A DNA stretch of 64,000 bases from Nemertoderma westbladi (Eukaryota; Animalia; Xenacoelomorpha). The position numbers and the translations under genes are program-made. The notes below the pieces were generated by a model. The model was given only the letters and a program-made list of their open reading frames with translations, made no database searches and was not told the origin of the DNA. The stretch lies in contig JAUCBJ010008796.1 of the NCBI GenBank assembly GCA_032718475.1, positions 1 through 64,000 of the forward strand, in the 5' to 3' direction. Position 1 is the first letter of the stretch; each line of letters begins with the position of its first letter. Positions 20,681 to 52,110 of this stretch are shown here, piece by piece.

Positions 20681-21308
20681 TGTGAGCGGATTCAATTCCA
20701 TTACATTATCCACCCGAAAATGTGACCAGTGGCATTTTACTAATATAGTTGAGGATACGAGATTACCAATAATAATCTCGCCTCATAACCAACTTTGGGG
20801 GGGGGGGGGGCGATACAAGCCCTAAAGCCACAGAGAGAGGTGAGAGGTCAAACCACCTCGGAGGGAGAACACAGCTAGTAGAGGCTAGCGGCAGGGGGAA
20901 ACACTCACAGGGAGTGCCAAAGTGACAATTAGTATATTAGCCAATAGCCACTGGGTACAGAAGGCCAAGTAGAGTAAGAGGTGAAACCAATATCTGTGTG
21001 TATCAATCATATATTATTCTGTATTACTGATTTACCAGTCAGTTGATCAATCACAGAGTTGCAGACCGGTCATAGTTTACGACCGTCGCCAACCAATATC
21101 TATTACTGATTTACTGCTGTCATTCTGTATTGTGGTATCAATTACGTACTGATTCTGTGCTATTATCATTCGGAACATTAACATTGAGAAACACAAACTC
21201 TGTTATTTTCCCCGACGGCCTTTGGCCAAACAACAATAGCTCAACAGCCCCAGCAGAATGGTGACGCATACTAAATCTAACCCGGTCGGGATCTACGATC
21301 CCGTCACA
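20681..21308 (+). repeat. 5' LTR of B (628 bp)
   Basis: Direct repeat with 28745-29406; lacks a ~37-bp segment present in the 3' copy. Confidence 0.95.
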
Positions 21309-21319
21309 GTCGTAAACTG
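21309..21319 (+). promoter_or_regulatory. Non-tRNA primer-binding site of B (GTCGTAAACTG)
   Basis: 10/10 complementary to LTR segment AGTTTACGAC 21074-21083, plus one G:U pair. Confidence 0.7.
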
Positions 21320-21356
21320 CCAGCCTACTAACAAACTGTGACTGCAAGACAAAAAG

Positions 21357-24300
21357 ATGAGCAAACAGGAGCCCCGACAGTCAGAAGGGGAGAGAATGCC
21401 GCTGCGGATCCCGGACGACACCAACCAAACGATCCGAGAGGCCGCGATGAGACGGTATAGGCCTGCCACTCCGGATTTGCCAACGAGGGACGATCCAGCA
21501 ACCCAAGTGGAGAGCGGCTGTCAACCACGAGAGAGAGGCGAGCGATTCACGACGACGACGGCGGTCGGAGTACCGGAGTTGCCGGCCAGCCTCAGGCCGA
21601 GGGCAACGGACGGCCCACCGGAATGGCGACGGTGGGGCCGCCGGTACGATGCCGGACGAGGAGAGAAGATAGAGTCGACGAAGAGGATGTCGGGACGAGT
21701 GATCAGCTATGACGGGCCTACAACGCCACAAAGAAATTACTCAAAGAGGGCTAAGGAGGGGAGAAAGGTAGACCAGCCTAAACTATACGAGAGGCTAGGT
21801 GAGTCGAATAAAAATTTTCGTTATTTAGTCCGTTTTGGACAGGGAGAACTGGCGAGTGAGAGAGTGAGGGGGGTCACCACGGAACTGTTTGAATTGTGGA
21901 GGTCCGGGGTAATGGAGCCAGACGTAGTGTACGTAGGGCCTTACTTAGTGGATGCTAGGGGAATTAAGTTAGTGGGATGGGCAGACCCACACGACGGAGC
22001 TGAGGTTAGGTCGTTAGGTGTCGTCGGTTAGCGAGAACCCTAGAAAGCGGGGGAAAGTTAGTAGGACAGAGAGGCAATGGGAGTCCGTCGCGACCGATAA
22101 GTCCGCTACATCCTCCGCTAAAGCAAGAAGGGTGTTAGAGATAGATCTGGCGTGTCAACTAGACATTGTGGCGCTGGATCAAAAGGAATTGGAGAGACAA
22201 TTAGATGAGGGAACTGCATTATTGGAGAGGGAGAGAGAGTTAGTGAGAGAGAGTAAAGAGAGGGCTGAGAGGGTAGCGAGAAACTTTAGAGAGTGCGAGG
22301 AGAGGAGGGCTGAGAGGATTGCGAGAGAGGCAGAGTTAGCCGACCAAAGCATTAGGGAGGATAGAGAGAGAGAGAGAGAGCGGGAAAGCGTATGCGGGAT
22401 ATGCATACCCGGTTGAGGGGGATTATGCAATACCAGACGAAGCAAAAACGCCGGTTAGAACTGGCAAAGTTGGGATTATCGGAGAGTGAGGCTGGTTCGG
22501 GTAGTATTTACGAGGAGCCAGAAGTAATGGAAACCTTTGTTAATACCCCACTTACAGGTGCCGGACGACAGACCCAGGACTGGTGGAACCGTACGGGCAG
22601 GGGGGGGGGGTAATAATAATACGTTAGAAGGAATTAATATTAATAGTACCGTAATAGACAACCCTAATCAAACCTTTGTTGCAGGAAATAATATTTTATC
22701 CGGTAATAATAATTCTAATTTAAATGTGCAAAATAATCAAAATAATGATTCTAATTTAAATGTGCAAAATAATCCAAATAATAATTCTAATTTAAATGTG
22801 CAAAATAATCCAAATAATAACCCTAATTCTGAACAAAATAATTTAAATAATTTAAATAATAATTTAGGTAACAATATTAGGTTAAATAACAACCCTGAGG
22901 AAATTAATCAAAATAATATTATTAACAACGGTGCAATTAATACAAATGCAGGGGGAACAGGTGGCCCGGCCAACGAGAGCCTGCAAGGCCAAGTAGTTAC
23001 AAAAGGAGTAGCAGGGGTGAGTCAACCCAACGAGAGCCTGCAAGGCCACATAGTCACGCAGGGAGTAGCAGGGGTGAGTCAACCCAACGGGAGCCTGCAA
23101 GGCCTCGCAGTCGCACAGGGAGAGGAGGGGGTGAGTAGACCCAGCCAGGGTAGAGATAGTGCGTCGACTAGAGAGGGGCGTAGAAGCGAAGTAGGAGGTA
23201 GCGAAGAAAGAGGTGGCGAATGGGGGGGAGGGGGCTAATGGCACCCCACCACGAGAGATTAGTGGCGAGAGTGGGGGGGGGCAGAGAATGTCCCACAAGC
23301 GTCGGCGGACAATGCGCGCGGCAAGTTAGGTGAACCGCGGCACCAGATGACAGAGAAGTAGGGGGATTGCGAGTATCCCCAGGAGCGTCCAGCCGGACAG
23401 AGAGAGAGAGACGTTGGCGCCATGGGCGGGCGGGCGAGAGGACGTCGGGCCCAGTCAGAGGGCGGGGGAAGAACAGTGGAGTTTATCCGGGAGGTCGAAG
23501 CGAGATCTCACGAGGGGGATCACTACACTGAAGAGAGAAGAAGTGAAGAGAATAGAAGAAGCGTTGCTACGAGCAACCGGAGAGGAAGGACGGACAGTGA
23601 ACCGTCGGTAGAAGAGATGGAGTTAGAGAGTCGGTGGGGTCGAACTCCGGGAGATTGCCGTCGCCCCGGAGAGACGCAGCCTGGTGAGATATACCACACA
23701 CCGGGAGAAGGGTACAGGATGTACCGGTGTGAGGACGAGGACAGGAGAGGGGATCGAAGAGGAACTTCCTGATGGAATATAGCTGCCGATCGAGAGTACG
23801 GTAGTCGCGGGGAGGACTTCTTGGAATATTTGAGAAGATTAAACTTCGGTCCGGAAGGACACAGGCAGACTGCAGGACATACTGTAGGCCTTACTGCACA
23901 TATTATAGGCCATGCTGGAAGAGATAGTGTAGGCGATAGGGTATCGCGGACAACAGGATTAGATCCGGAAGTCGCGGCATACATACCGGTAGGTAGGCAA
24001 GAAGTGGATAGGGCTATACCGGTACCTGCACACCAGTATGACTATAATATGCAAGGATATAATATATACTCAGGGGAGGGGGGAGCTATTTCCGATAGAT
24101 GCATGGGCCCTAACATGGTAACATCAACCCCAGTACCAAATATAACACCGGTGGGGGGGGGGGGGGCAGGATGACATTCCCCCATTGCAATATCAGCAAT
24201 ACACTCAACCAAGAACAAAAACCCCAAACCCTTCAGACCCAAATAAGTCGTGTGATAGAGAGATATGGAGGGGACCGTTACCCCCAGTGATATATCCAAT

Positions 24301-25986
24301 GCAGAGAAGGTCGACAGGCCCGACAGGCGAACCGCACCCAACAGCAGGGGAGTCTGCACAGCAACCATCAAACGTGCTAGAAGTACAAGCGATGGGAATG
24401 GCAACACTCATCGACGCGCTTAAGACCAGGATCGAGCTGCCACCAGTGGAGCCGTTCAAATTCGATGGTAGTAAACCAGAGGAATATCTGCAATTCCGGC
24501 ATATGTACAGTAACGAAATATTGACAAAGAATCTGACGCAGGCGGAGTGCCTAAAATACTTACAAGTTTACACAGGGGGGCCAGCATACGACATCGTAAG
24601 GCAGTACCAAGGTATCGAAGGTGGATTCACGACTGCATGGTGGGCCCTTCGGACAGGGAATTCGGACATCCTGCTAAGATCATCCGACAAACCTTGAGGG
24701 GGATAACATCAGGCGGACTACAGGATAACCCTGTCAGCATCAAGACTGTTGCGAATAAAGTCGAAAAGGCGCTGATTGTGCTAAAGACCTTAGATGCGCC
24801 TTACGAACTCAATGCATCTAATAACATCACCACAATAGCGCAGGTACTACCGATCTGGCTGAGGAATAAGTGGAGAAAGATCGCCTTCTCCAACAGAGAG
24901 AAGAAGGGTGCGGAGCCAGGGCTAGAGGAGATGTCGAACTTCCTTAATTATGAGGCGGAGTTGATTACATCTACCTATTTGGATGGACACTCAGCGGCCC
25001 AATCAAGTCTAGAATTCCGTTCAGCGTGTCAGAATCCTCAGGGTGCATGTTCGCAGGCACAATGAGAGAAATGGAGGACGAGGGAGCAGAGGAGAAACCA
25101 GAGACGGGCGATGGGGAGGACCCATATGAGAAGCAGGCCAAGGAAGAGAACCAGGAGTCGGGGATGGGTACGGATCTGGAACCACACATAGTGGAGTGTG
25201 GGAAAGGGTCGAGGACAGAGAAACACCGCCGACAGATGAGTCAGGAATAGAAACAACAACAAGAGAGTGGGCGGACGAGAATGGGGAGTATCGGTATAAG
25301 GATAGAGAAGAGTGGACGGCGAGATGTCCGGAGAGGTGTCCGGAACAGACGCCGGTCCAGTTGAGAGGCATACCGGTGGGGAGGAGGTCGAGTAAGAAGA
25401 CAAGGTGGAAAGAGAAAGGATGTGCGAAGATTAGACCAGGGGCAGAGAAGCCCATGATCCCAGGCCCATGAGGCAGGAAAGTGGGAGAGGGCATGTTGTA
25501 CACGCATAAGGGGGTGGCAGAGTTCGAAGGGGCATTAAATGGTAAGCCATTACGTGTACCGAAGGATGATCGGGGGTCATCGGGGGCTTTAATGCCGGCG
25601 CACATATTAAGGGGGAGGCCAGCAGAGGTGGCATGTACCAGTAAGAATGACATGAGGGGCGGCATTCTACCGCCAAATGACGACAAGATGAAGGGTGGCA
25701 CTTTGCCGCCAGGGGACGACCACGAGGAGATCAGTGATATGACGGAAAGACCTGACTTAAGGGTGAAGGAGAAGTGAAGAGAAGTGAAGAAGATTCCAAA
25801 AGAGTTGGAATTGAGAAGAAGAGTGGCGCGAAGATTAAGAGGACCTATAGGGGGGCAGTGGGAGAGTTGCCTGCTGGAAGAACCGCCCTTAGGTTGTTGA
25901 GTCATCCAATATGTTGGACTGAGGGGGGTGGGAATGAGGGCGAGACACCCTTCTCACACGTGAAAAATATAAAAATAAAAATATAA
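21357..25986 (+). pseudogene. gag: Frameshifted BEL/Pao gag of element B
   Basis: PFKFDGSKPEEYLQFRHMY...LKYLQVYTGGPAY and LPIWLRNKW...LEEMSNFL resemble the BEL/Pao capsid (DUF1759-type) region; multiple frameshifts. Confidence 0.85.
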
Positions 25987-26040
25987 AATAAATAACAAGC
26001 AAATAATAAAATAAGTAGTAAGATAGTAGAAAGTACTAGT

Positions 26041-26792
26041 TTTTTTTTTTTAACTTACTAGTTTATTATATAATTTGCACAATATCAGCATAACTCTTTT
26101 ACAGGCACTTTATTAATAGAACAAAATAAATAATTCCTACACCGATACCGATAATAAAAAAAATAATAAATAAAGAAAGAAGGGAAAGAAGGGCCTGTTT
26201 AGAGGCCTATGACTACCACTGACAGTCAGTCTAGCTGGTGTTGGTATCAGCGTTAGTCAGGCGAATCGAGTCTGCGGACACCTGATGATAAACGGGGCGT
26301 TTGGTGGCGGATCTCGCTCCACGGAGACACATCAAACTGGAGCAGAGAAGCGTGAAGCTTATCTTCCTCCGCGTCCAGCAGATACACTCAGAGTAGCTGA
26401 GGTCGCGACGATTTTAGAGTTTAAGCGATAAATGCTTAACGAACTGTTGCATCGCTGGCGCGGTACCGCCAAAGGCTGAAAGTATCAGAGGCACAAACGA
26501 CGACAGTTCGACCTCTCGGATGCGCTCCTCGTACTTCAGGCGTTTCCGCGCCTTGTGGTGGGAATAAGCGCCCTCGGTGGTCATGGCTGCATTGGTGGCC
26601 GCTAGAGGGTTGTAGACCGAGACGTCGAAGTAAGTCTTCTCGAACCGGCCACCCCAGAACCCACTGACAAGAGACGTCCAACCTCGCCTGATCTTCTGTG
26701 GAGGTGGATCTGTGGGTGAACTCCTCACCTGTTAGAGGCTGGAGTGTTGGCTCTACTGCGACGTTGTGGGCTACTTCGGTTAGCGCCCCTAC
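26041..26792 (-). mobile_element. 5'-truncated CRE-clade non-LTR retrotransposon (REL endonuclease end) inserted in B
   Basis: GFWGGRFEKTYFDVSVYNP...KRLKYEERIREVELSSFVPLILSAFGG; poly(A) seen as T-run 26041-26051; TSD TAGAAAGTACTAGT at 26027-26040 and 26793-26806. Confidence 0.85.
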
Positions 26793-26809
26793 TAGAAAGT
26801 ACTAGTAGT

Positions 26810-27290
26810 AGGTAGTAGGTAGTACGTAGTAGGTAGTACGTAGTACTAAGTAAGGTACATAGTACCATAGAAGTTAGAAGTTGTGGGCACTGAGGGCGCC
26901 ACATAGGAGCAGTAGTAGGGTACATAGTACCGTAGAGGTTGTGGGCCGCCCGAAAGCGCCACGTAGTAAGAGAGTAGATGGTATGGTATGTAGGTATACC
27001 ATAGAAGTAGTAGCAGAGGGGTTGTGGGCATCGAAAGCGCCACGTAGTAAGACAGTAGAGGGTATGGTATTTAGGTATACCATAGAAGTAGTAGCAGAGG
27101 GGTTGTGGGCACCGAGAGCACCACATAGTAAGAGAGTGAAGGGTATGGTACGTAGGTATAACATAGTAGCAGTATTAGGGTACATAGTACCATAGAAATT
27201 TGAAGTTGTGGGCATCGAGAGCGCCACGTAGTAAGAAAGTAGAGGGTATGTAGGCATACCATAGTAGTAGAAGGGTACATATTAAGAAGG
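26810..27290 (+). repeat. Degenerate tandem array inside B, related to the array in A
   Basis: Recurrent GTTGTGGGCAnCGAnAGCGCCACGTAGTAAG, the reverse complement of a unit in A. Confidence 0.8.
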
Positions 27291-27309
27291 AAGTAGGAAG
27301 GTAGATAGG

Positions 27310-28034
27310 ATGATAGCACAGACAGGGGGCAACATAGATAAAATTAAAATAGAACTAAGAAAAATTGGCACTTTGGGGGTGGTAGAGAACACAGGACATT
27401 GTGGAGCAGTAGGGATGGGCCAGCTCATGGGCCTTATCTGCCACAAGCCGATGGACTGGGGCAAGTTCCGGGAGGAGCACGGAGCGGGCACAGGACATTG
27501 TGGAGCAGTGGCGATGGGCCAGCTCATGGGGCTTGTCTGCCACAAGCCGATGGACTGGGGCAAGTCCGAGAGGAGTACGGAGCGGAACTGGCAAACTCGC
27601 TGAAATGGGGAGCGAGGCCAGGGAAACAGGAGATATATCAGATCCGAAGGGGAGCGATAAAGATATATCAGAAGAGATATATCTTACAGGAGGATTGGAT
27701 AATGATAGGTTTATTAAACCTATTCATGGCCGTGGTTATCGGAAGAGAGCCGTCGGCATTTCTGCTATCAGGAGCACCTCTAAATCACAGGAGAGCCTTT
27801 AAGGTGGCCTTTGAGGGTCTTGTAGACCACCCGGGGCTGAAGGGCGAGTTGGTGTACTACGATAGCCGACACCTAGTGGACAGAGAGGTGGATACACCCT
27901 ACAAGATGTGGAAGAAGTTGGTAGCATATTTGAGGACCTATGGGGATTCCCTCAGGGGAGTTGGCAAAGATACCAAAAGGACACCAACCATAGATCTGGA
28001 AGGCAAATACGAACTCCTAAGTGCAAATAATTAA
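27310..28034 (+). pseudogene. Remnant of an additional 3' ORF in B, with a ~99-bp tandem duplication and a frameshift
   Basis: ORFs 27310-27603 and 27399-28034 join by a 1-nt deletion in the second repeat copy; HRRAFKVAFEGLVDHPGL resembles HRYYPGRAYEGVYAFHPYL in ORF2 of C. Confidence 0.45.
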
Positions 28035-28744
28035 GTGCAATTAGTATGTACGTATGTAGATAATTAATCAATATAAATATATAACCAATATAAGTACTAT
28101 AGTCATATATATAACCTTTCCCAATTAACTACTGGGACTGGGGACCAATTGACTATGACAGGAGGACGAGACACTAGACGAATCACGCTTCTTGAGTACG
28201 ACGGCACAAAAGGGGAGGGTGAGGCTCGTCAGGGGTAGGTGGAGACATTAGACGGATCCCATTTCTCAAGTGTGGCCACACTAATGAGAATGTGGGAGCT
28301 TTACAGGAGGGTATGGAGGATAAAAACAAGGTATCTATTGAGTATAAGAGAAAGGGGGGAAAGGGGAGGTGTTGGCGCGTGAGGAAGTGAGATGAGTGCA
28401 ATTCAAGCGTGGGGAGCGAGCAGTGAGAGAGGAAGAGTCCCAAGGGACCGAAGAGAGAGTAAGGGACAGCGAGGTCCGTGAGGAAGATTAGAGTGAAGTT
28501 GTAGAAAATTGTGTGAAGAGAGAGCACAATTGTCTCAAACAGAGACACCAGATACCTTGATGCAACATAGCTCACGATTGCAGCAAGGAGTGGTAGCAAT
28601 AACACACCCAGGGGGGGCAGTCTGGAAAGCCGACCCCGAGAAAAGAACTCCACCCCACACCCGATATTAGATTGGGTTCCAGCAGCATTGAAGCGCACTT
28701 AAGGTTGATGCTATCTTCTCACCGGGAATATAGCATGGGGGCGG

Positions 28745-29406
28745 TGTGAGCGGATTCAATTCCATTACATTATCCACCCGAAAATGGGACCAGTGGCATT
28801 TTACTAATATAGTTGGGGATACGAGATTACCAATAATAATCTCGCCTCATAACCAACTTTGGGGGGGGGGGCGACACAAGCCCTAAAGCCACAGAGAGAG
28901 GTGAGAGGTCAAACCACCTTGGAGGGAGAACACAGCTAGTAGAGGCTAGCGGCGGGGGGAAACACTCACAGGGAGTGCCAAAGTGACAATTAGTATATTA
29001 GCCAATAGCAGGCAGGGAAGCACGTGATCAGAGATAGGAAAGCATCCACTGGGTACAGAAGGCCAATTAGAGTAAGAGGTGAAACCAATATCTGTGTGTA
29101 TCAATCATATATTATTCTGTATTACTGATTTACCAGTCAGTTGATCAATCACAGAGTTGCAGACCAGTCATAGTTTACGACCGTCGCCAACCAATATCTA
29201 TTACTGATTTACTGCTGTCATTCTGTATTGTGGTATCAATTACGTACTGATTCTGTGCTATTATCATTCGGAACATTAACATTGAGAACCGCAAACTCTG
29301 TTATTTTCCCCGATGACCTTTGGCCAAACAACAATAGCTCAACAGCCCTAGCAGAATGGTGACGCGTACTAAATCTAATCCGGTCGGGATCTACGATCCC
29401 GTCACA
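28745..29406 (+). repeat. 3' LTR of B (662 bp)
   Basis: Direct repeat of the 5' LTR with a few substitutions; followed by the TSD. Confidence 0.95.
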
Positions 29407-32072: not shown

Positions 32073-33282
32073 TGTAAAAGCTTTTGTGGGATACTGATTC
32101 GTTTGCCTTGCTGGCCAGTTCCCCCCCGGTCGCTAGAATACTCTAAAAGGGATCTATAGGTAAAATAGTGCAAGCTACCAGCTTATTGGCTGATGTGCTG
32201 TACTGAGGTATCTGGGTTCCGTTTAATCGGCCAACCAGCTTAGAGAGGTTGCCTTAGCCCTGCTGTCCGTATCGGCCAATAGAATTTGAGTGGGCGTTGA
32301 TTTCGACCTATCCCAGAGCTACTGAACTGAATTTTCCTATCTCACTGCTCATCCTCTGTGTTGGACGGGAGCTTCGGGGAATAAGGGTAGTTGGTATCCT
32401 CGTATAGGGATTCTAGTCTTATGATTCTTCATATGATTCTGTTGTTGTGTTCCCATTTTTCGCCATAACACCGGCTTTTGGGAAGAACTCTAGTAAAACT
32501 GCTTAAATTATCGAAGGTATAAACTGTTATCCTATCAACCTACCATCCTACCTACTAATCAATCAATCAACCTGATTCTGTTGCTAATCATATTGTTTGT
32601 ACTGTTATTTACCGTCAGTTATTAATTGTATCTATTTGTTGATGGAAATATTGCTCTTTGGAGAATACGGATAAATCACCCAAATTTCCCAATTTTCTTG
32701 ATACACTACAGGTTAGAGAGACAGGCTATATATAACAATTGCGATTTATATTAATGTGGTGTGTATTGAATCTAATGTTATTTAGCAGACCCTACATGAG
32801 TCAATTGCTGCTCTCTTTATGTGTGATCAAATTTACTGACGGTCGGCAGAATAGTGTGCATGATTGTAATTGATAACAAAGTATTTCCTAAAGAATACGC
32901 TTTATACTTTAATCATAAGCAGTATCGTTGCGTTTAGTATAAGTCCTAGTCCTGTTTAAATAGATAGAGCGCCACGTCCTAAAGGAACTGTTAATATTTC
33001 CCGAAAGCCAATAATATCTGTCAGAAATTAATTAATAACGATCAATCGAATAATACAGTAAGTTTACACTGCAACCTTACACTGCAATAATAAAATTTAA
33101 GCAGCCGAATTCAGCCTCCCGGGTGTAGATCCATCGGGTGAATGATCGCGCATGGGCTGTCTTCGGGTAATGTTTTGTTTAATAGCATAAAATATTGTCG
33201 TATGCTAAAGGTGTTTTAATTAACTAGAAGACATATAAATTTTGGCAGGTTGAACTGCTAAAGGTCTTCAAAAGCGCGAACA
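32073..33282 (+). repeat. 5' LTR of C (1210 bp)
   Basis: TGTAAAAGC...GCGCGAACA; CCAAT boxes near 32184 and 32276; AATAAA near 33089. Confidence 0.97.
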
Positions 33283-33295
33283 ATAACAGTTTATA
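33283..33295 (+). promoter_or_regulatory. Non-tRNA primer-binding site of C (ATAACAGTTTATA)
   Basis: 13/13 complementary to LTR segment TATAAACTGTTAT 32518-32530. Confidence 0.75.
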
Positions 33296-33348
33296 ATCTT
33301 ATTGCAGTAAGCAATAAGGTTGCAAATACCGTAGTGACCGGTAACCTG

Positions 33349-35534: not shown

Positions 35535-35984
35535 ATGTCTGACACTCAGCAAAACCTGTCAGACAGTCTGATCGATACAACTATCTGTGACTCAGATAGG
35601 AGTGTGGAGCGATTAAGAAAGGAGTTCAGCTCACCTCCTACTGCAAAAAAGGTCATCCCTCCAGTAGTATCAGACCCTAGGCTAATCCACCATAGGTCCA
35701 TCATAGGCACTCGGGCACAGGTCAAACGGAACCAAGAGGCAGTTGTCCTATCGCAGCAGCATCTTGGTCAAGACCCTACTTCCCAGCGACCCGATAGCTC
35801 CAGTAGTTCGGATACTGTAGAGCTGACCCCCGAACGCGGAGTGCAGATGGCTGCTACAGTCTACTCGGACCCCCTTCTCACCCTTCCTGCTGCAGTCTAC
35901 TCGGACCCCCTTCTCACCCTTCCTGCTGCAGTTAACTATATTCATTGCGGTGGAGGAACATCAAGCCGACTGGGCGAGAAATAA
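35535..35984 (+). CDS. Upstream ORF or out-of-frame N-terminus of gag in C (149 aa)
   Basis: ATG in AAACATG context; overlaps the +1 frame, which is open from 35827; contains a 36-bp duplication. Confidence 0.55.
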   Translation: MSDTQQNLSDSLIDTTICDSDRSVERLRKEFSSPPTAKKVIPPVVSDPRLIHHRSIIGTRAQVKRNQEAVVLSQQHLGQDPTSQRPDSSSSSDTVELTPERGVQMAATVYSDPLLTLPAAVYSDPLLTLPAAVNYIHCGGGTSSRLGEK

Positions 35985-38900
35985 GCGAGCGACCCAAGAT
36001 AATTATGCGGGATACGCCAGGGAAGAATTAATGTCTATTGTCGAGTCACAATGGAACTTTCCCGGACTCGGACTCCCGTTGGACCTGTCCGAGGCTACTT
36101 GGGAAGATATACACAGGATGGGAGTGGCAAAAGATACAATGGATCCAGCTGTTTGGAAGAGGTCGGCATCAGGATATGTGCAGGGATTCTTCGGCTCCTT
36201 GGAGCGATTGGAAGAACAACTGTTTCGACAACCTCAAGGACCTCAAGAGCAGGAAGAGCTGCTATACCAAGTACGTGAAAGAACCCTACGCATACGACTA
36301 ATCCTCTCAGCCTTTGAGGAAACTTCCAAAAGAAGACAGGACACGTCGCTGCAGGTTGCTGTCAAAACTTGGTTACATCGGGTAGATCTCCAAGTACAGG
36401 AAACGGCCCAGTGGAAATCCCAGCTGGCTGAGAGATCAACCTATGAAGAACAAACTGATGTCACCCTTTCTCAAGCGGAAAGCGAAGAGACCGCCGAGAA
36501 ACCGCGAACTAGAGACGCTATCGACATTTATTTGTCCGACTATCAGCGATTCCTAGGAGACGAAGAGTTGAGTAGACGGCTGTCTGGACTTTCCCCTAAT
36601 AGTGAAGGAACCAAGCTTGTGTTGGACTCAATCGATGCCGAAATGTTAGCTGCAAACCAAGCTGAATGTGATGAAAAACTCCGCCTCACTAGAGTCCGAG
36701 AAGAACAAGTAAAGAAAGAATGGATAGAGAAAAGAAAGGTGGCAGCAGCAGCGGCGGCAGAAGCAGAAGCCAAAAGAAAGGCGGCAGAAGCAGAAGCCGA
36801 AAGAAAGGCGGCAGAAGCAGAAGCCGAAAGAAAGTCAGCAGAAGCAGAAGCCGAAGCCGAAAGAAAGGCGGCAGAAGCAGAAGCAGAAAGAAAAGCAGCA
36901 GTGGCAGAAGCAGAAAGTAGAGCTTCTGAGGAGACTATCCAATTGGAGTTGAAAAATCTGCAAGAGACGCAAGACAGTATAAATAAACAGTTTACTGCTA
37001 ATCAAATGCAGATGATGAGAAAATCTACTCCCAAGCGCCAGGGATACACATCCTCGGAGGAAGGCGAGACTACCGATCCTGAAGGCGGAGGAAATAGATC
37101 TCATCTAAGTAGGCGTAGAAAAACATCTTACCGCCGCAAATTGCCTGATTTGCCCCCAGCTGTTAGAAGACAGCTAGCTAGCACAGACTTGAGTAGTATA
37201 GAACCCACAGCCCAAAGTATTAAGGTCCAAAGACTCTCTACAATAGTTGATGAGCCTGAGATAATTAGGCCTGTCGTTCCCAAGGTCACTTCTGTGTTAG
37301 AGACCCCTGTACTTCCAGAGCTTAACTCTAAATTCCCTTTACATAGTACTACACTGCCTGTACCCGGTGGAACAGTCCAAGAGAATATCCCTGTCCAGAT
37401 AGCAGAGAGAGAAATCAAAAATTTGTCTCCCGTCGTCCCGCGTCAGCCCGCTACTATGTTGGCGACTCCCGCTTCGGCGGTTGAGTGGGTGGAAGAGGGA
37501 CGGCGGGGGATGAATCTCCTGCTAGGACAAATGCAGGAGACTGTCCACCAACTTAAGGGAACAGTGAGAGAAGGCAGAGCAGAGTTGCAAGAAGTGCAGC
37601 AAAGTATCGCACTAGAACGCGATAAATTAGTCAATATACAAAGGGGCATACCAATACCCCCTGTAACATTGTGTCAACCTGTTAGGTCTGAAGTATTACA
37701 TGCGCAAGGTGTGGAGCCTACACGCATCTATACTGCTAGTGAAGTTGAAACTCCTATAACAAACCCTATTAAGGGTGATTATAGACCTGTTATTAATGAT
37801 ATTCCCTATAGACCTGATAATGATCCGAGAAATTTATATACCGATAATTCGATATTAAATAACACGATGGCCCAAGAAAGCTTTACGCGTCAGATGGCTA
37901 GAACAGAAGCCCGCCAAGCGGTCAAAGTGGGAGAGATCGTCAAATTCAATGGAGATGAGATGAAATGGTTACCTTTCAACGAATATTACAAAGATAGCAT
38001 ACAGAACTCTGTACTATCTAACGGAGAGAAACTTAGATTCCTCATCAAGTGCTTGGAAGGACCTCCCAAGTTAATGGCGTTAAAGTTTATTGGACATCCA
38101 GATGGGTTAAGACAAGTTTGGGATACATTAAACATCAGGTATGGTAACAAGGATAACATAGCTAAGTATTTGTATGCAAAATTAGTAGCCCCTCGACACT
38201 TCCTTAGTAGCGGGATTATAGAGTTTTCCGATGAGATTCAAGAGATCTGTAGACAATTGGACTGGTTAGGTAAGTCTCATGAATATCAGAGTTCCATGGT
38301 TATTGGAGCCGTAGTCTCTACTTTACCAAAGGGTGGAGTATGTACACGCTGGGACAAGAAAGTGTTGTACATGAATGAACAACAACGACGAAGTCCTACC
38401 ATGGCTGATCTCATGTCTTTCTTAGATGGTGAAGTCAAACTACAACTCATCAAGCAGTCCAGAGAAAAAACATCGGAAAATAAGGTAAGTGAGAAACCCA
38501 CTTCTAGGAGAAGGGTAACACCGGTGTGTTACACTGACGACGGCGAAAGCCAAGCTTCTCAAGAAGAAGACAGCGGGAAAGACACCGAACGTTCTTACTA
38601 TGTTGACAAAACCTCCAAGGACGTAAGTAAATACAAGGCTCGAACCAACAATAGGAGAGAACAGGTTGCTAAGACCCCTCCTCAGTCTCCTAGCAGAATG
38701 CGCGGAAGAAAGCCCGAAGAAAGAACGAGAGTGCATCAGACTACCCAAGGTAAAGTAAGTAACATAAAACCTAACTGTGCGCTGTGCGACGGGACCCACC
38801 GTTTGAGTGCGTGTGCGGAATTTCTAAAGAAATCCCTTGTAGACAGACGTACAGTTGTGTGGGACAAGCGGTTATGCTATAATTGCCTCAGACCAGGACA

Positions 38901-41900
38901 CCAACGGCGAACCTGTTACTCCGACATAAAGTGTGAAAAGTGTGGTGCGAAACATCACATCTTGTTACATAGTGAGTTCGAACGAGACAAGCAGAGTCAG
39001 GTAAGTGAGTCCGAACTACATGTCCAATTCAGTGATGTAAACGACACTGATCAGGAGTCTGAGATGGAAGGGTTCTATACTGACGAATTCTCCGACGCCA
39101 ATGAATCCTGTTATCTAATAAATACCGCGGTGTATCGAGCACTTACTTACGAAAAGGACATCAACGATGAGTTTTCCCCAACTAATTTCGCCAAACAACC
39201 ATCTTGGAAAGCTCCAGCTTCCAACGTAGGAATCAGAGAATTTCCTGTAGTTCAGGTAAGAGTTCACGGTCTTAACAAAAGCTACATAGTGAATGCCCTC
39301 CTGGACTCCGGCAGCACAGGAACATTCATCGATCAAGAACTAGCCGAAGATATCTTTGCTGGACAACCCAAGTTCCGGACTAAATTGAATATGTCAGGAA
39401 TTATGCAGGTTTGGAAATCTACCCTAACGGCAGATTACTATGTAGGTGTGTTGTCCACCCCCCAGGATAAGTTAGGAACACAAGGCATAAGGTCAGTAAA
39501 AATGGTGGCTATAAAGAACTTTGCTACTACTCAAGCAGACCTTTATAATTGGGACGAAGATGAGAGCGTCCAACATCTGAAGATACCTCGATTCCAGACA
39601 GATTATCCTGGAGTGCAAATACTTATCGGCCAAAACGCGCACGAGGCGCTCGAAACATTAGAGAAACGGCCTGCTCAACCACAACCACTGCAAACCTATG
39701 CGGTAAGAACTAGAGTAGGTTGGTACTTTACTGGCCCTTCCCGTAGAACTCTCGAAGAGAGAATGCCACACGAACAAATATATCAAGGAAGTGATTGGGA
39801 AGTGGAAAGCAGTGAGGTGGACGAACTAACTGAGGGAACACCATACTCCTCAGATAATGACGACATCTACCAACTCTTCGAAGAAGAGAACACAATTGAC
39901 CTACTTACAGAGAATCAAACTTGGAAAAACCAAACGAACCTATGTCAACTGATTCGCCCAACGGAATCCATTATTTATAATGACGAACTTAATGACGAGG
40001 TAGAGCGCTACAACGCTAGAACTCGGGACGAACTCGCCGTACGATTCTTTACCCAAGAATTAGTAGAACCCAATTCATACGACAAAGCCCTGTCAATAGA
40101 AGAAGAAAGAGCCAAGCAAATCCAGGAAACAACCACACGTTTTTTAAAAGATCAAGGTAGATATGAAATCGGACTACCCTTCCGAAAACGTGAACCCAGA
40201 TTTATAAATAACAGACCCTTGGCTGAGAAAAGAATCAATCAATTACATCGACGTCTTACGGCAAACACTTCAGCTAAGGAAATGTACCAAACTCAGTTGA
40301 AGAAATTTATCACAAAGGGATATGCGGAGCGAGTACCGGAAGGAACTCCAATAACTGAAAGAACTTATTATCTAACACATCATTACGTTCCCAAGCCCGG
40401 TAAACCCCATGAAGTACGAGTCGTATTCGATGGCTCTGCTCTATATATGGGCCAATCCCTTAATTCCGAGTTGTTACCAGGACCCAATTTACTACAATCT
40501 TTGTTGGGAATACTTTTGAGATTAAGACAATATTCCATCGCGTTCGCTTCTGATATCGAAGGAATGTTCTTACAAGTCAAGGCGCTGGAGAGAGATAGAG
40601 ACATCCTGAGATTTCTGTGGTGGCCTGAAGGAGACCTCAACCAGAAACCGGTGGAGTACTGGATGACCATCCAGGCTTTTGGGATCATATCTAGCCCTTC
40701 CAATGCCTGCTCCGTGGTGCGAACCACTGCGAATGACAACCGAGACTCCTTCTCCAAAGAAGTGATAGACAACATAAAACGCAATATATACATGGACGAC
40801 AATTTAAGGTCCCTTCCATCAGTAGAAGAAGCCATAGCTGTCGCGAAAGGAACGGTAGAGTGTTTGAAAAGAGGTGGATTTCGACTGACGAAATTCACTA
40901 GTAACTCCCGTGAGTTTCTGGAAGCCATACCGGTAGAGGATCGCGGAGCGAAAGACCTAGACTTAATAAAAGACGATCTTCCTGAAACCAAGACGCTAGG
41001 CTTGAAGTGGGACACGGAAAGAGATATCCTGTTTTTTCAGCTAAAACAGCGAGATAATCCAGTTCGGACCAAACGGATTTGTTTAAGTATCCTGAGCACT
41101 TATTTCGACCCATTGGGATTTATTAGCCCAGTTATATTGATTGCTCGGAGTTTAGTACAACAAATGTGGCTTGAAAACCACTCGTGGGACGATCCCCTCA
41201 AGGGAGAATTATTAAAGAAATGGATGAAATGGGAGGACTCGCTACCTGCTATCGAGAACTTTATAATTTCCCGTTCATATTTTGGTCATGTTCTCCCTAC
41301 GTATTCCTATCAACTCCATGTATTTGGAGATGCCAGCGATATGGGAATCGGTATAGTAGCATACCTGCGAGTCGAAACTCCGGATGGAATCAAAGTTGCC
41401 TTGGTTACCTCTAAGGCATTGATTAACAACAAGCTTAAGGTTCCTCGGGCGGAGTTAAAAGCAGCCTTATACGCTACAGCTATCGGCCGGAATGTAACGG
41501 AACAGATCGATTATCCACTGGAGAAAACTGTTTATTGGACCGACGCTTTACTTGTGTTGGAATATATAACCAATGAAGTCTGTCAGTTCAGCGTCTTTGT
41601 TACTAACAGAGTGGCCATTATTCTTAGTCGCACAACGATAGATCAATGGAGACATTGCCCTGGTACGATTAACCCAGCTGACATCGCCTCCAGAGGAGCA
41701 ACTCAACAGGAACTGATAGATACCCCTGACTGGTTGTGTGGACCCGACTTCCTGAGCAAGGAAGAGGATGAATGGCCTCCTCACCTTACTACGGCTGAGA
41801 TTAGACAAGCCAAGGGAGCGGAGAAAGTCAAACCCAAAATTAGAACAAGTAAATCGAAATTATTTAAACCGACAATCGATCTATCTGTATTACATACTGC

Positions 41901-43611
41901 CGAAAACGATACTTCGGATCCACAATCCCTCGCCACAAACAAGTCTGTTGTGGAAATTAGAGACAGAGATTGGAAATCTGAGATACCAGATGTCTCGCAA
42001 GGAATCTCACCCCTGCTGCAGAGAGCACTGCATCATTACAGTTCCTGGAATCGTCTCTGTAAAGCCATCACATACTTAAAGAGATGTTTTCACCATCATT
42101 ACTCCAGGAAGCAGACCACTAGTGATCCTGCTCCAGTAACATCTGCGCAAGTTTATGTTATTAAAGATCTACCGAAGTACAAGATATCAGACCGGTTTCT
42201 AAAGGAGAAGATCAGTTACCAGGAGCATGAAGAAACTAATAAGCAGCTACTGAGACTCCTGCAATGCTATGAGGATTCCGATAGGTACTTTCTGTTGTTG
42301 AGAAATCCGCAGATGCGCTTAAGGGATCGCTTCTCTAGCACAATGATAGATGGGTTAATACGTGTTGGAGGAAGGCTTACAAACGCCCCATTATCCTTTG
42401 ATACTAAATTCCCTATACTCATTAGTAATCTTGAAGTACAAATCAAGATGATTGTAGATGTTCACAGTAAACTGTATCATGCTGGTAGAGAACGAGTTCT
42501 TAGCGAAATTCGAACCCGCTATTATTTTCATAAACCGCGTAGAGCTCTGAATCAAGTTCTTAGGAACTGCATACCTTGTAGGAAAGTATTCAGTAGGCCT
42601 TTAACACAGCGAGAGGCAGAATTACCTATGGAACGAGTAAGCTTTTATGAACCACCCTTTACTAATACTGGTGTGGATTTATTTGGCCCTATTGAAGTGT
42701 ATCGTGCTAGAACTATAATCAAGAGATGGTGTGTAATCTTTGTCTGCATGACTTGTAGAGCTATCCATCTCGATATGGTGAACGATCTATCTACTAACAG
42801 CTTCGTCTTATGTTTACGACGACAGATCGCTCGTTTCGGCACTAGCAATACGATGAGATCCGATAAGGGAACGAACTTCATTGGTGCCAACAACGAAATT
42901 CAGGCTTACGTAAAGGACTGGAATCAAAGACAGGTGGACGACCAGCTACGGATAACGGCGTCTAGCTGGACCTTTAACGCCGCCGACGCCCCTTGGTGGG
43001 GAGGAAGTTGGGAGAGATTAATTCGAAGTGTCAAGACCACATTTCACTTTATAGTGCCGTGCCGCGCATATCTCACCGACGAACTTCTACGGACGTTAAT
43101 GGAGGAAATCGCTGCCTATCTTAACGAGAGACCGCTTATGCCAGTCTCATCGAGTCCCGACTCCCTGGAAGCGCTAACACCCGCGCACTTCCTACTTAAA
43201 AAACCTGTAGCCATGCTCCCACAATCCGAGATTGCCGATGGGGATGAATACTGTCGTCGAACTTGGCAGCTTATGCAGTTGCTATCCCGTCGTTTCGCTG
43301 ACCATTTTGAGAAACATTATCTGCCCACGCTACAACTTCGAACTAAGTGGTTTGCGCAGCAGGAAAATGTCAGCGCCGGAGACATGGTCCTTATTGTAGA
43401 TCCGGACCTTCCACGTAGACGGTGGCAGATCGGTCGTATCATCGAGACGCACATCTCGGAGGATGGTCTAGTGCGCTCAGTAGAACTCGTCGTAATGCGG
43501 CGTAATTTCAAGAAACCCGGTACCCAAGGAGGTGAGGTCTCTATAGGGGTGCCGGGAACAGGCGGCGGTGGACTCGTGAGGGTCTGGGGGCACGTTAAAT
43601 CTTTCTTATAG
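35950..43611 (+). CDS. gag-pol: BEL/Pao gag-pol polyprotein (capsid, 3 Zn knuckles, aspartic protease, RT, RNase H, integrase); true start uncertain
   Basis: KFNGDEMKW; CALCDGTHRLSAC/CYNCLRPGHQRRTC/CEKCGAKHHILLH; LLDSGS; YLTHHYV..VRVVFDGS, DIEGMF, YMDD; FGDAS, PRAEL, WTDA, NPAD; HSKLYHAG..CIPC, GVDLFGP, SDKGTNF, GGSWER. Confidence 0.97.
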   Translation: MEEHQADWARNKRATQDNYAGYAREELMSIVESQWNFPGLGLPLDLSEATWEDIHRMGVAKDTMDPAVWKRSASGYVQGFFGSLERLEEQLFRQPQGPQEQEELLYQVRERTLRIRLILSAFEETSKRRQDTSLQVAVKTWLHRVDLQVQETAQWKSQLAERSTYEEQTDVTLSQAESEETAEKPRTRDAIDIYLSDYQRFLGDEELSRRLSGLSPNSEGTKLVLDSIDAEMLAANQAECDEKLRLTRVREEQVKKEWIEKRKVAAAAAAEAEAKRKAAEAEAERKAAEAEAERKSAEAEAEAERKAAEAEAERKAAVAEAESRASEETIQLELKNLQETQDSINKQFTANQMQMMRKSTPKRQGYTSSEEGETTDPEGGGNRSHLSRRRKTSYRRKLPDLPPAVRRQLASTDLSSIEPTAQSIKVQRLSTIVDEPEIIRPVVPKVTSVLETPVLPELNSKFPLHSTTLPVPGGTVQENIPVQIAEREIKNLSPVVPRQPATMLATPASAVEWVEEGRRGMNLLLGQMQETVHQLKGTVREGRAELQEVQQSIALERDKLVNIQRGIPIPPVTLCQPVRSEVLHAQGVEPTRIYTASEVETPITNPIKGDYRPVINDIPYRPDNDPRNLYTDNSILNNTMAQESFTRQMARTEARQAVKVGEIVKFNGDEMKWLPFNEYYKDSIQNSVLSNGEKLRFLIKCLEGPPKLMALKFIGHPDGLRQVWDTLNIRYGNKDNIAKYLYAKLVAPRHFLSSGIIEFSDEIQEICRQLDWLGKSHEYQSSMVIGAVVSTLPKGGVCTRWDKKVLYMNEQQRRSPTMADLMSFLDGEVKLQLIKQSREKTSENKVSEKPTSRRRVTPVCYTDDGESQASQEEDSGKDTERSYYVDKTSKDVSKYKARTNNRREQVAKTPPQSPSRMRGRKPEERTRVHQTTQGKVSNIKPNCALCDGTHRLSACAEFLKKSLVDRRTVVWDKRLCYNCLRPGHQRRTCYSDIKCEKCGAKHHILLHSEFERDKQSQVSESELHVQFSDVNDTDQESEMEGFYTDEFSDANESCYLINTAVYRALTYEKDINDEFSPTNFAKQPSWKAPASNVGIREFPVVQVRVHGLNKSYIVNALLDSGSTGTFIDQELAEDIFAGQPKFRTKLNMSGIMQVWKSTLTADYYVGVLSTPQDKLGTQGIRSVKMVAIKNFATTQADLYNWDEDESVQHLKIPRFQTDYPGVQILIGQNAHEALETLEKRPAQPQPLQTYAVRTRVGWYFTGPSRRTLEERMPHEQIYQGSDWEVESSEVDELTEGTPYSSDNDDIYQLFEEENTIDLLTENQTWKNQTNLCQLIRPTESIIYNDELNDEVERYNARTRDELAVRFFTQELVEPNSYDKALSIEEERAKQIQETTTRFLKDQGRYEIGLPFRKREPRFINNRPLAEKRINQLHRRLTANTSAKEMYQTQLKKFITKGYAERVPEGTPITERTYYLTHHYVPKPGKPHEVRVVFDGSALYMGQSLNSELLPGPNLLQSLLGILLRLRQYSIAFASDIEGMFLQVKALERDRDILRFLWWPEGDLNQKPVEYWMTIQAFGIISSPSNACSVVRTTANDNRDSFSKEVIDNIKRNIYMDDNLRSLPSVEEAIAVAKGTVECLKRGGFRLTKFTSNSREFLEAIPVEDRGAKDLDLIKDDLPETKTLGLKWDTERDILFFQLKQRDNPVRTKRICLSILSTYFDPLGFISPVILIARSLVQQMWLENHSWDDPLKGELLKKWMKWEDSLPAIENFIISRSYFGHVLPTYSYQLHVFGDASDMGIGIVAYLRVETPDGIKVALVTSKALINNKLKVPRAELKAALYATAIGRNVTEQIDYPLEKTVYWTDALLVLEYITNEVCQFSVFVTNRVAIILSRTTIDQWRHCPGTINPADIASRGATQQELIDTPDWLCGPDFLSKEEDEWPPHLTTAEIRQAKGAEKVKPKIRTSKSKLFKPTIDLSVLHTAENDTSDPQSLATNKSVVEIRDRDWKSEIPDVSQGISPLLQRALHHYSSWNRLCKAITYLKRCFHHHYSRKQTTSDPAPVTSAQVYVIKDLPKYKISDRFLKEKISYQEHEETNKQLLRLLQCYEDSDRYFLLLRNPQMRLRDRFSSTMIDGLIRVGGRLTNAPLSFDTKFPILISNLEVQIKMIVDVHSKLYHAGRERVLSEIRTRYYFHKPRRALNQVLRNCIPCRKVFSRPLTQREAELPMERVSFYEPPFTNTGVDLFGPIEVYRARTIIKRWCVIFVCMTCRAIHLDMVNDLSTNSFVLCLRRQIARFGTSNTMRSDKGTNFIGANNEIQAYVKDWNQRQVDDQLRITASSWTFNAADAPWWGGSWERLIRSVKTTFHFIVPCRAYLTDELLRTLMEEIAAYLNERPLMPVSSSPDSLEALTPAHFLLKKPVAMLPQSEIADGDEYCRRTWQLMQLLSRRFADHFEKHYLPTLQLRTKWFAQQENVSAGDMVLIVDPDLPRRRWQIGRIIETHISEDGLVRSVELVVMRRNFKKPGTQGGEVSIGVPGTGGGGLVRVWGHVKSFL

Positions 43612-45763: not shown

Positions 45764-46567
45764 AATTTAACATCAAATAATAAAATTCACGGGAATAAAT
45801 TTAAATTCATATTCAAATGAATTTCATAAATTGTCATTTTGCGCAATTTATAACATTCCCAAAATTCCAGTAATTAATAGATCATGGGAGCGGAGATTCA
45901 TATTGAGTGTACTAGAGTGCGAGAATCTCCAACATATAGTCAATAGCCGATAAAATTTATAAAATCATGCATAAAGAGGATATTGACAATTAAAGAATTA
46001 CTATTAAATAACATCCCAGATCTGTATGCATGAGAATTCCCCTAATTCTACCGCTAGTTTTCCATAATGTCACCATGGCAACACCCACGCTAGAATTAGA
46101 AGCAAGTTAAAGGAACAATAAAAAGCTTACCCCATTGCGTAGCATAAGAGTATACATAACGCACTATTAGTATCCAAGGATACATAGTAATAACGTGACA
46201 TTCTGGAAGACACTGACTAACGGACAAATGGCATGCATGTGTGCAGTAAGCAATGATTGTATGGAATTTGTGCGTTTATAGGTGAATGTTACTACTAAAG
46301 TGTGTTTACAGTAGCTAATCGCAATTGTAAAGTAGCCCTAACTCTACCGAGATAACCTCAAGTGGATTCAAGCCTTGGGGACGGACAGTGGTGGGACTTG
46401 TGCCGGTTATCGTTGTCGTGCTGTTGCTACATGTTGGCATAAACACTGCGACAACGGTACATCGGCGCTGAGAAACCCACTGTCCGGGGGCAAAGCCTAG
46501 TAGGCAGCGACGCCCGCTTGCCTAAAATATTAACTCATATTGATATTAATAAACTCAGATAACAGAT

Positions 46568-49500
46568 ATGACGGAATTGATAGAAGATGACCTTGGTATC
46601 AGGGAGCGATATACTCTACCTTTACAAGCGTTTGTGGATAGCTTGATACGCGGTGAAGCCGATCCGACTATTACGGAGGACGATGGTCGTTATATCGAAC
46701 CGCCGATGTCCCAGGAACAACTTACGCGTGAATTGGACTATAGAAAATTCACCGCTCGCTATACGAATCGTAATGGTACGTATATGGACTTCTTAACTAC
46801 CGGCCATCCTACCGATTTAAATGATACGGAAGATGTAGACACCGAAAGGGAAATGGTTTTATTTAAATATCATGCCCAGCGGAATCGTAATGATAAACCG
46901 AGAATAGAACACGAGAACTCTATTCGCAACCTACTCGACAGAGAAAACGTTGAAGAACCCGATAAGCGCCTCAACTTCAACGACTACTTGGAATTTTTGA
47001 GAGAAACCTATCTCAATATTGCCAGTCAACAGAACCTAGAGACTCGATATCCTCAAGGTATACATCACGATCCCATAGTAGAACTCAAACGACTCTATTT
47101 CACCATGATGTATCTTACCGCAGATCGTCCACTGCCTGTTGTCCCGGACAGCTTTGAACAAATGGAAGAGTATTGCAAAACTGGAGAACGATCACCAGCG
47201 TTTCCTCTGCAGGACGTACGTCTTTGGTATTATTGTGACTCATGTCCTAGACCTAACCAGCAAACGGAAAGACATAAACATCCGCGGAGACGTTGTGCTA
47301 AACACAGTTTTACGCGTTATACTTACGGGAGTTTCGAGCGAAACCTGTTCGACGTATCACCTACGATCGCCCGTCTAAAACGATCGCTAAATAAACCTAT
47401 GATCAGAGTTCCGGAATACTCGGTCAGGCCTCCCCATTTCCCCGTGAGACCTCAAACTCTTGATCCTAACAGTATCACTGATCCTCCCGAGTTATACTCA
47501 CTGTTCAAAGATTTGGTGTTACCCGAGCAGTTAATCGGTGGTGTTCCAGCGGTAGGTTCGTTAGATATTCGACCATCCTATTTAACCGGATTGGGACGCG
47601 GGCATCTAACATCGCCATTTAATCCTTACAATCGACCAGGATTAACTCCGATACAACCTGCCACGGAAATCGAGGAGAGTGTCATCAGAAACGCTTTAGA
47701 CGCCATCCGACAGAAAATCGGAAAGGGAACCCAGGATTTTCTAGAGAAACGTAAATTACAGCAGCAGGTCCAATCGGTGAAAGAGTTAGCCTTGCCGCAG
47801 TTTGATAGAGAAATCCAAAACCTCGAAGAGGACATCGAGCTTGGACATACGTATTCTCTACAGGAGTTTCTAGAAGAACGCTTACAGAAACAAGCGGAGG
47901 AAAATCAACTAGAGGAGAAACATACGGAAATGGATGAGAGAGAGGAAGCCGCTTTAGCCCAACCCGAAGCTCAGATACTCATAACCGATCTCTACTCTAA
48001 AACCGTCCGTCATCCCTCGATGGTTCCGCATTTCGGAGACAAACTTTTCGCAAAGATACAACCTCAACCGGTTGATATCGGCATAAGGTCGCAAAATCTT
48101 ATCGCTGACGCTCCTATGTTACAGCGTCCGCCAATCGAGGCCGCTCGAGTTGACGGTATACTCGTTGAACCTCCGGACAATCGAGCGGATCTTGTCCGTC
48201 GTATGGTACACGATGTCAACATACGCGCTAGACCTTTACAGAACTCTTTTTATGGAATTAAAGATCACCCTTATTACGTTAATCTGACTCAATATTATAT
48301 GGTAAAACCAGAAGATCCGACGCATAATTTAAAGTTTCTACCACTAATAAATCCTCTGGACATTGTCGAACTCGAACAATTGCAAAAACATCTGGATCAG
48401 TTAGTAAAGGTAAACTCATTTCGAAAACCATATAACGTTTCTCGAATAGAGAAGGATACAGAACCTCCTTATAATCTCGATGGATTTATTAAAACTCGAT
48501 TAGTCCATTGGAATCTAGACGTAATATTCGAGGAGGAGAAAATACAAAGATATGGAAATGTGGAGACGTATACCACTCGATACATGAAGTATAGTGATCT
48601 CCCTGACGCTAATCAATGCGCCACCTTGTGGCATCCAGTAGGGATGACCCTCGAGAACGCCACCAAAGAGTGGAATGAAACTCTTAATATCATTGAGATG
48701 TATGGCGTTGTTACTTACGATAACGAAGGTAGCATTCCAATCGGAGAATTAGGAACTACGCGCATGATACACATACGCGGATTAGCTGGTTCCACTCACG
48801 TGTTTACGCGAGCGTGTTCCGACGTGGTCGATTATTCCTTTGAAACTCTCACCGAAACGCAAAAGAATCTCCGACATGGACAATTCGAACTCGCGCAGCG
48901 TTACGTCATTGACACCGAACGCAAACCGGCCATGGGTATCGATGGATCGATGTTACCCCAGCCCGTTCTCGAGATGTTATTCAACGAAAGAATCATTAAA
49001 ATCGGCTCAGCTGTTTACGGGGATCTCCAAAACGACTTTCGGAATATGGAAAATATCCCCTATCCTTTCGTGGATACTCAGCTGATAGCTCCTTGGGCCG
49101 AAGGCCGAGGTTTCTTTCGCACCATGTATGCTAATGCGTCTAGCAACGTTACAAAGGTGCAACGAACTTCCATCGGACATCTTGCCTTTCAGGAATACGG
49201 ATGTAATTTCAAGGTCGGAAATCCCATCAACTATCAACAAGTATACGGAGACCATTATTCTCGATTATACTTTGACGGACCGTTGACCGCACCTGGCGCC
49301 GTGTATAGCTTCATGAGTGTTCCACTCCGTCCCTCCTTAGCTATCTACACGATCTTCGAAAACACCGCACTTTCCGGTTGGCTAGCCGATGTGTGCAGTC
49401 GTACTATACGCGCCCATCCATTAATCCTTGGGACCAAACTCGCTAAGCTAGATGAACATAATAAATTCATCCGCTTTGAATGTTTCCGACGGTTTTTAAC

Positions 49501-50821: not shown

Positions 50822-50899
50822 CTGTTTAGAGTATTTTTATATTTTAGAAACTGTGATTTTGTATATTTTATAGACTTAAATCCCATTTTCTGGGAGCGG

Positions 50900-52110
50900 T
50901 GTAAAAGCTTTTGTGGGATAACTGATTCGTTTGCCTTGCTGGCCAGTTCCCCCCCGGTCGCTAGAATACTCTAAAAGGGATCTATAGGTAAAATAGTGCA
51001 AGCTACCAGCTTATTGGCTGATGTGCTGTACTGAGGTATCTGGGTTCCGTTTAATCGGCCAACCAGCTTAGAGAGGTTGCCTTAGCCCTGCTGTCCGTAT
51101 CGGCCAATAGAATTTGAGTGGGCGTTGATTTCGACCTATCCCAGAGCTACTGAACTGAATTTTCCTATCTCACTGCTCATCCTCTGTGTTGGACGGGAGC
51201 TTCGGGGAATAAGGGTAGTTGGTATCCTCGTATAGGGATTCTAGTCTTATGATTCTTCATATGATTCTGTTGTTGTGTTCCCATTTTTCGCCATAACACC
51301 GGCTTTTGGGAAGAACTCTAGTAAAACTGCTTAAATTATCGAAGGTATAAACTGTTATCCTATCAACCTACCATCCTACCTACTAATCAATCAATCAACC
51401 TGATTCTGTTGCTAATCATATTGTTTGTACTGTTATTTACCGTCAGTTATTAATTGTATCTATTTGTTGATGGAAATATTGCTCTTTGGAGAATACGGAT
51501 AAATCACCCAAATTTCCCAATTTTCTTGATACACTACAGGTTAGAGAGACAGGCTATATATAACAATTGCGATTTATATTAATGTGGTGTGTATTGAATC
51601 TAATGTTATTTAGCAGACCCTACATGAGTCAATTGCTGCTCTCTTTATGTGTGATCAAATTTACTGACGGTCGGCAGAATAGTGTGCATGATTGTAATTG
51701 ATAACAAAGTATTTCCTAAAGAATACGCTTTATACTTTAATCATAAGCAGTATCGTTGCGTTTAGTATAAGTCCTAGTCCTGTTTAAATAGATAGAGCGC
51801 CACGTCCTAAAGGAACTGTTAATATTTCCCGAAAGCCAATAATATCTGTCAGAAATTAATTAATAACGATCAATCGAATAATACAGTAAGTTTACACTGC
51901 AACCTTACACTGCAATAATAAAATTTAAGCAGCCGAATTCAGCCTCCCGGGTGTAGATCCATCGGGTGAATGATCGCGCATGGGCTGTCTTCGGGTAATG
52001 TTTTGTTTAATAGCATAAAATATTGTCGTATGCTAAAGGTGTTTTAATTAACTAGAAGACATATAAATTTTGGCAGGTTGAACTGCTAAAGGTCTTCAAA
52101 AGCGCGAACA
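50900..52110 (+). repeat. 3' LTR of C (1211 bp)
   Basis: Preceded by short purine tract GGGAGCGG (50892-50899), followed by the TSD. Confidence 0.97.

Follow-up and report, generated by a model that had tools for sequence, protein, structure and literature searches.

The window, a stretch of 64,000 nucleotides of Nemertoderma westbladi contig JAUCBJ010008796.1, contains a 20-kb LTR retrotransposon, element C, and two smaller gag-only elements, A and B (features are on the + strand unless stated). Element C is bounded by a 5-bp target site duplication (TSD), TTCTC, at 32068-32072 and 52111-52115. LTR comparison and the flanking TSD placed its 5′ LTR (1210 bp, TG...CA) at 32073..33282, and its 3′ LTR lies at 50900..52110, preceded by a purine-rich tract (PPT) at 50890..50899. 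A single inserted base is the sole difference between the two LTRs, which, together with the TTCTC duplication, indicates a young insertion. The TG...CA LTRs, the 5-bp target duplication and the PPT are all structural hallmarks of BEL/Pao elements.

A non-coding leader of 2.5 kb (33283-35827), which holds a 38-bp tandem repeat at 33348-33478, separates the 5′ LTR from an uninterrupted gag-pol ORF of 2594 codons (35827..43611). This ORF encodes a BEL/Pao-type Gag-Pol in the order PR-RT-RH-IN, with DUF1759, CCHC knuckles, protease, the RT motif YMDD, an RNase H region, integrase and DUF5641. DUF1759, the Pao Peptidase_A17 region, the integrase zinc domain and DUF5641 scored above the Pfam cut-offs, and the motifs that we take to be those of the protease, the YMDD-containing RT, RNase H and integrase all lie within the one open frame. 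The best relatives of the RT region among BEL/Pao proteins were 34-44% identical, and the named sources of such relatives included many marine invertebrates and fish. The Pfam domains, the motifs and the RT-region identity upheld the BEL/Pao assignment made by an earlier, sequence-only reading of this DNA. The domains were those of BEL/Pao and not those of a Ty3/gypsy chromovirus pol. A tree of RT regions (103 rows), built without named reference elements or an outgroup, showed element C as a long branch without close kin and assigned it to none of the named clades (Suzu, Sinbad/Sailor, Pao, BEL, Tas, Dan, Flow). No relative of it was found among the viral contigs searched.

An intact extra ORF of 1422 codons (46553..50821) lies between pol and the 3′ LTR. 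It follows a 3-kb spacer (43611-46553), and it helps bring element C to 20 kb, twice the ICTV range. Among the contigs of run X1 there is one in which 43514 is joined to 44791. The ORF has almost no homologues: two weak relatives were found, both with sub-threshold CCHC matches and one with a sub-threshold 3′-5′ exonuclease match on a stretch that aligns with element C. These matches, like those of the ORF itself, fall below the family cut-offs and give a weak hint that it may carry CCHC knuckles at roughly residues 1115-1185 and, around residues 780-950, a region resembling a 3′-5′ exonuclease. A search for shorter homologues found none, comparison with the PDB gave no significant match, and a single-sequence AlphaFold model was unusable (pLDDT 31.6).

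The sequence-only reading had claimed that the 5′ LTR of element C is followed by a complement of its own LTR in place of a tRNA-type primer-binding site, and both parts of this claim were confirmed. The 13 nt immediately following the LTR-terminal CA, ATAACAGTTTATA (33283..33295), are the exact reverse complement of 32518..32530, a candidate self-primer within the LTR that also reads TATAAA. An identical second copy of this segment is present in the 3′ LTR at 51346-51358. No TGG occurs in the 100 bases that follow the 5′ LTR, and the 18-nt tRNA-Arg or tRNA-Gly site that belongs to the ICTV description of the family, which is not a phylogenetic criterion, is likewise absent there. No tRNA genes were found in the window, and an Rfam search over element C gave no match. 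A hairpin lies directly 3′ of the primer-binding position (33298..33318), and the fold model predicted hairpins flanking that position on both sides.

Taking as a criterion an own-LTR match of at least 10 nt that starts 0-5 nt past the LTR, element C has 13 nt at offset 0. When the LTR was shuffled with dinucleotide composition preserved, a match of this length arose in 6 of 20,000 shuffles, or in 18 of 20,000 when offsets of 0-5 were allowed. None of 3,480 sampled internal positions matched the LTR at 11 nt. The two strands of the window together hold 2,117 ACA sites and, inverted-repeat arms aside, the site at 33282 was alone in reaching at least 11 nt. The arms in question, which also reach at least 11 nt, belong to a long, near-perfect inverted repeat near 53380-53830 that is possibly MITE-like. 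No splice junction in the element C LTR improved on the contiguous 13-nt match.

Elements A and B offered a comparison within the same window. Element B occupies 20681..29406 (LTRs at 20681-21308 and 28745-29406; TSD CTCTG), and its 10-nt segment at 21074-21083 is complementary to 21309-21318. Element A lies on the − strand at 1..7101, with its 5′ LTR at 7101-6574 and its 3′ LTR truncated where the window ends; its 9-nt segment at 6752-6760 is complementary to 6565-6573. Both matches are at offset 0. Matches of these lengths arose in 21 of 20,000 shuffles for B and in 16 of 20,000 for A, and exactly 9 nt was reached at 12 of the 2,117 ACA sites, that of A included, which makes the 9-mer weak when taken alone. 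When the two primer segments were aligned at their 3′ ends, five of nine positions differed, and each difference was matched in the partner site. No splice junction beat the contiguous match in A, and in B the only one to do so was a GC-donor junction in the 3′ LTR (12 versus 10 nt). Both elements have TATA-like and TCAGTT motifs upstream of the primer segment.

No match to pol was found in A or B, and their Gag similarity is weak (tblastn, and DUF1759 with an E value of 9.5e-4, below the cut-off). The sequence-only reading had cited them as elements with the same geometry and different sequences. The geometry held (9-10 nt at offset 0), but the two do not count as independent autonomous elements: because they are gag-only, non-autonomous and related to each other, they amount to two related data points. 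Their LTRs, otherwise diverged, close with the same short hairpin-forming sequence, and a stem-loop directly upstream of the PPT is common to both (455-500 on the − strand in A; 28715-28744 in B). A BEL/Pao RT-region fragment at 62320-63264, for which no LTR was identified, is the fourth such element in the window.

A scan of metagenome contigs provided 79 further loci, the best of 483 confirmed matches, from 15 of the 64 parts of the collection. For a fair test of the signature we used the 10 families in which the 3′ end of the LTR could be fixed at the point where two LTR copies diverge; the LTR end of L018 was set, and L048 was trimmed, by eye. Eight of the 10 had a self-complement of 10-15 nt located 0-4 nt from the LTR end, compared with none of 90 cross-family pairs at 10 nt or more. 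The complementarity is thus kept with different letters in related families, as the earlier reading had required. Of the two remaining families, L075 has a TGG-type site, with TGG 5 nt past the LTR, and L068, whose LTR does not end in CA, had a best match of 6 nt. L068 (464-490) has no match within 0-4 nt, although inspection by eye suggests that a longer one, to one of the LTR copies, starts about 7 nt past the LTR. The LTRs of L018, L037 and L044 end in TATA rather than CA, and their self-complement is kept 2-4 nt further on.

In six of the eight positive families the partner segment exists only across a predicted GT-AG junction within the LTR, and in two (L044 and L053) it is contiguous, the form also found in element C. 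A blind scan of junctions covered 78 loci, L033 having been left out because it repeats L031, and candidate junctions were present in 63 of them. The best own-junction match reached at least 10 nt in 20 of the 63 loci, compared with 174 of 3,878 cross pairs and 3 of 63 in a reverse-only control; the match in L024 is probably due to chance. A hand-picked set of 21 loci comprised 16 of the predicted spliced form, four contiguous and one TGG-type, with donors that were mostly GTAAG and acceptors that were pyrimidine-rich. Because these loci were chosen partly by their matches, the set is descriptive only, and the 10-family comparison remains the fair test. Contiguous and spliced states appear to interconvert, since of the sister families L029 and L031 the first is contiguous and the second spliced, and in L053 one LTR copy has the intron end and the other the joined form. 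The contiguous form in C, A and B could reflect either the loss of an intron or a lineage that never had one.

The 20 positive hand-picked loci and elements A, B and C together made a set of 23 elements. Their first 9-mers were of 22 different sequences, each matched by the element's own LTR. The helix was 11 nt long in 15 of the 23, and the 3′ end of the primer was AC in 19, AT in three and CT in one. In all 20 positive loci the helix started 0-4 nt from the LTR edge, and its length and 3′ end were near-constant. Element C is a long branch without a close relative among these loci, so the survey backs the group more than C itself, and we judge the comparative signal to be strong at the level of the group and good in the case of C. 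The extra ORF need not have a part in primer making, because relatives of 6-7 kb carry the signature as well.

The sequence-only reading had cautioned that the transcription start was uncertain because the LTR segment reads TATAAA at 32518, and this caution was justified, as the promoter-like motifs are ambiguous. The only TCAGTY initiator-like motif in the element C LTR is TCAGTT at 32615, and TATATA occurs at 32727. Both are downstream of the segment, and a start at either would leave the primer segment outside the 5′ transcript. The only AATAAA in the LTR, a candidate polyadenylation signal (33089..33094), is also downstream of the segment. The LTR's only GTAAG donor-like site, at 33058, lies just upstream of this AATAAA. 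It might be used to make a subgenomic RNA without the primer site, or might keep the 5′ LTR from directing polyadenylation. In run X1 all 30 bins of the element were covered, with many variants, and 32510-32555 was uncovered; X1 consists of contigs that may be DNA, so this gap says nothing about the transcription start.

In a folding model, the probability of the 13-bp helix was 0 for RNAs that start at or before 32460, and it climbed to about 0.9 only when the RNA began at 32518. Folding of long RNAs is unreliable, and the scan is not evidence for that start, since any helix of this kind gains once competing upstream sequence is taken away. A second helix, of the U5-IR-like accessory kind, was looked for as well. 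Across the 23 elements, the flank upstream of the primer and the flank downstream of the site paired with a mean of -6.98 kcal/mol, versus -5.38 kcal/mol when permuted (41 of 20,000 permutations). Element C itself was weak in this respect, 17 of 22 cross pairings being as good. The paired upstream flanks, together with the predicted splice-junction primers in relatives, suggest that in this group the primer can be internal in the RNA and is not necessarily the 5′ end of the transcript.

From the geometry and the co-variation, which constitute the support for the reading, we conclude that element C probably uses its own RNA as the primer for minus-strand DNA synthesis, in a Tf1-like manner. Transcription would begin at or upstream of 32518, and in the packaged RNA 32518-32530 would pair with 33283-33295 as a 13-bp helix. 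By analogy with Tf1, the RNase H of the element would then cut the RNA 3′ of 32530, so that the primer would end opposite the base that immediately follows the LTR. From this primer RT would copy U5 and R, a distance of about 750 nt, and then transfer to the 3′ end. Many relatives are predicted to put the primer together by splicing out an LTR intron. Such an intron could persist because the primer part would not be copied into strong-stop DNA and the LTR would be rebuilt from the 3′ copy.

On balance we also favour a broader reading, in which much of BEL/Pao has abandoned tRNA priming in favour of an internal primer of about 11 nt with an AC or AT end. In most families this primer would be assembled by the spliceosome from two LTR exons, so that only spliced genomes would be reverse-transcribed, and element C would be a deep-branching, contiguous member of 20 kb.

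Four other explanations were weighed. The helix may have a structural function, closing an LTR-leader domain that controls packaging, translation or polyadenylation, while a host RNA primes here or elsewhere. Any conserved RNA helix would co-vary, and the TGG-type site of L075 shows a host-type site among the relatives. However, the LTR edge is where the synthesis of the minus strand has to begin, and it is at 0-4 nt from this edge that the helix started in 20 of 20 positives, with near-constant length and 3′ end; for a host primer, moreover, element C has no TGG within 100 nt of its LTR. We consider this explanation unlikely.

Self-priming could also proceed from the 3′ LTR copy (51346-51358). 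Transcription would then start downstream of 32530, which would place the segment in U3, where it might also act as a TATA box; the primer would come from the 3′ end either of the RNA being copied or of another RNA packaged with it. The positions of TATAAA, TCAGTT and TATATA in element C fit this arrangement, as does the identity of the 3′ LTR segment. In A and B, however, the TATA-like and TCAGTT motifs precede the segment, and a cut in the 3′ copy would be expected to remove the template needed for LTR rebuilding. Priming from the 3′ copy thus seems quite improbable.

We give little credence to priming at 33283 by a tRNA half or another host small RNA, with the LTR match incidental. Half-tRNA priming is described for some copia lineages in the accessible text of PMC6317226, but a shared host primer is difficult to reconcile with 22 different 9-mers in 23 elements, each with its own-LTR match, or with the 0 of 90 cross pairs. 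Finally, a chance match in element C, for which the AT-rich segment, the long LTR and the selection of the finding from a large scan might argue, is extremely improbable given the 6 of 20,000 shuffles, the single ACA site of at least 11 nt outside the inverted repeat, and the 8 of 10 families against 0 of 90 cross pairs.

Self-priming by the element's own RNA, if it operates here as we favour, would extend a mechanism described in some Ty3/gypsy groups and predicted in one copia lineage to BEL/Pao as a third LTR family, and widely within it. It would bear on whether self-priming or tRNA priming originated first, a question raised in PMC3601003. Self-primed elements would presumably neither depend on a tRNA nor offer a site to 3′ tRNA fragments, and annotation tools that depend on finding a tRNA site would overlook them or set their bounds wrongly. 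In relatives, the predicted splice-made primer would couple reverse transcription to splicing. Term searches in the main text of three BEL/Pao surveys (PMC554778, PMC6238403, PMC3118150) turned up nothing on the PBS, tRNA or priming. We found no report of BEL/Pao self-priming or of a splice-made primer in the literature that was open to search in part; subscription papers and repeat-database notes lay mostly outside it, and an earlier mention is possible.

Among known systems, self-priming is given for Tf1/sushi and Tcn1 and, by prediction, for the copia lineage TAR (PMC6317226, PMC4600332, PMC6934838 and PMC5443660, each in its available part). The accessible parts of PMC7175516 and PMC4600332 describe, for Tf1 and Tf2 of Schizosaccharomyces pombe, Tj1 of S. 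japonicus and the Tf1/sushi and Tcn1 groups of Ty3/gypsy, what we find in element C: a site after the 5′ LTR with complementarity, of about 11 nt in those systems, to the LTR of the same element, and no tRNA site. The Tf1 primer is 11 nt long and is released by an RNase H cut between bases 11 and 12 (PMC7175516, same parts). Element C differs from these Ty3/gypsy elements in its BEL/Pao pol and in the distance of about 750 nt from primer to LTR end. The TAR lineage of plant Ty1/copia elements (Houba, Osr-1) resembles C in having a match of at least 10 nt located 0-5 nt past the LTR, but these are copia elements of plants, and their self-priming is likewise only predicted in the available text of PMC6317226. 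The bdelloid elements Juno and Vesta, with a DEDDy-exonuclease ORF3, share an extra ORF after pol (PMC5408684, as partly available); the ORF of C has 1422 codons and an exonuclease hint below cut-off, and the likeness is one of description. As to its own family, element C agrees with the ICTV account of Belpaoviridae (Semotivirus) in its LTRs, single gag-pol in the order CP/NC-PR-RT-RH-IN, PPT and optional third gene (PMC8742986). In the same account the site for tRNA-Arg or tRNA-Gly spans 18 nt and the genome 4.2-10 kb, whereas C has no TGG site and measures 20 kb (PMC8742986). Element C is therefore Tf1-like by geometry and not a member of Tf1/sushi, and it deviates from what the ICTV describes for the family to which it belongs.
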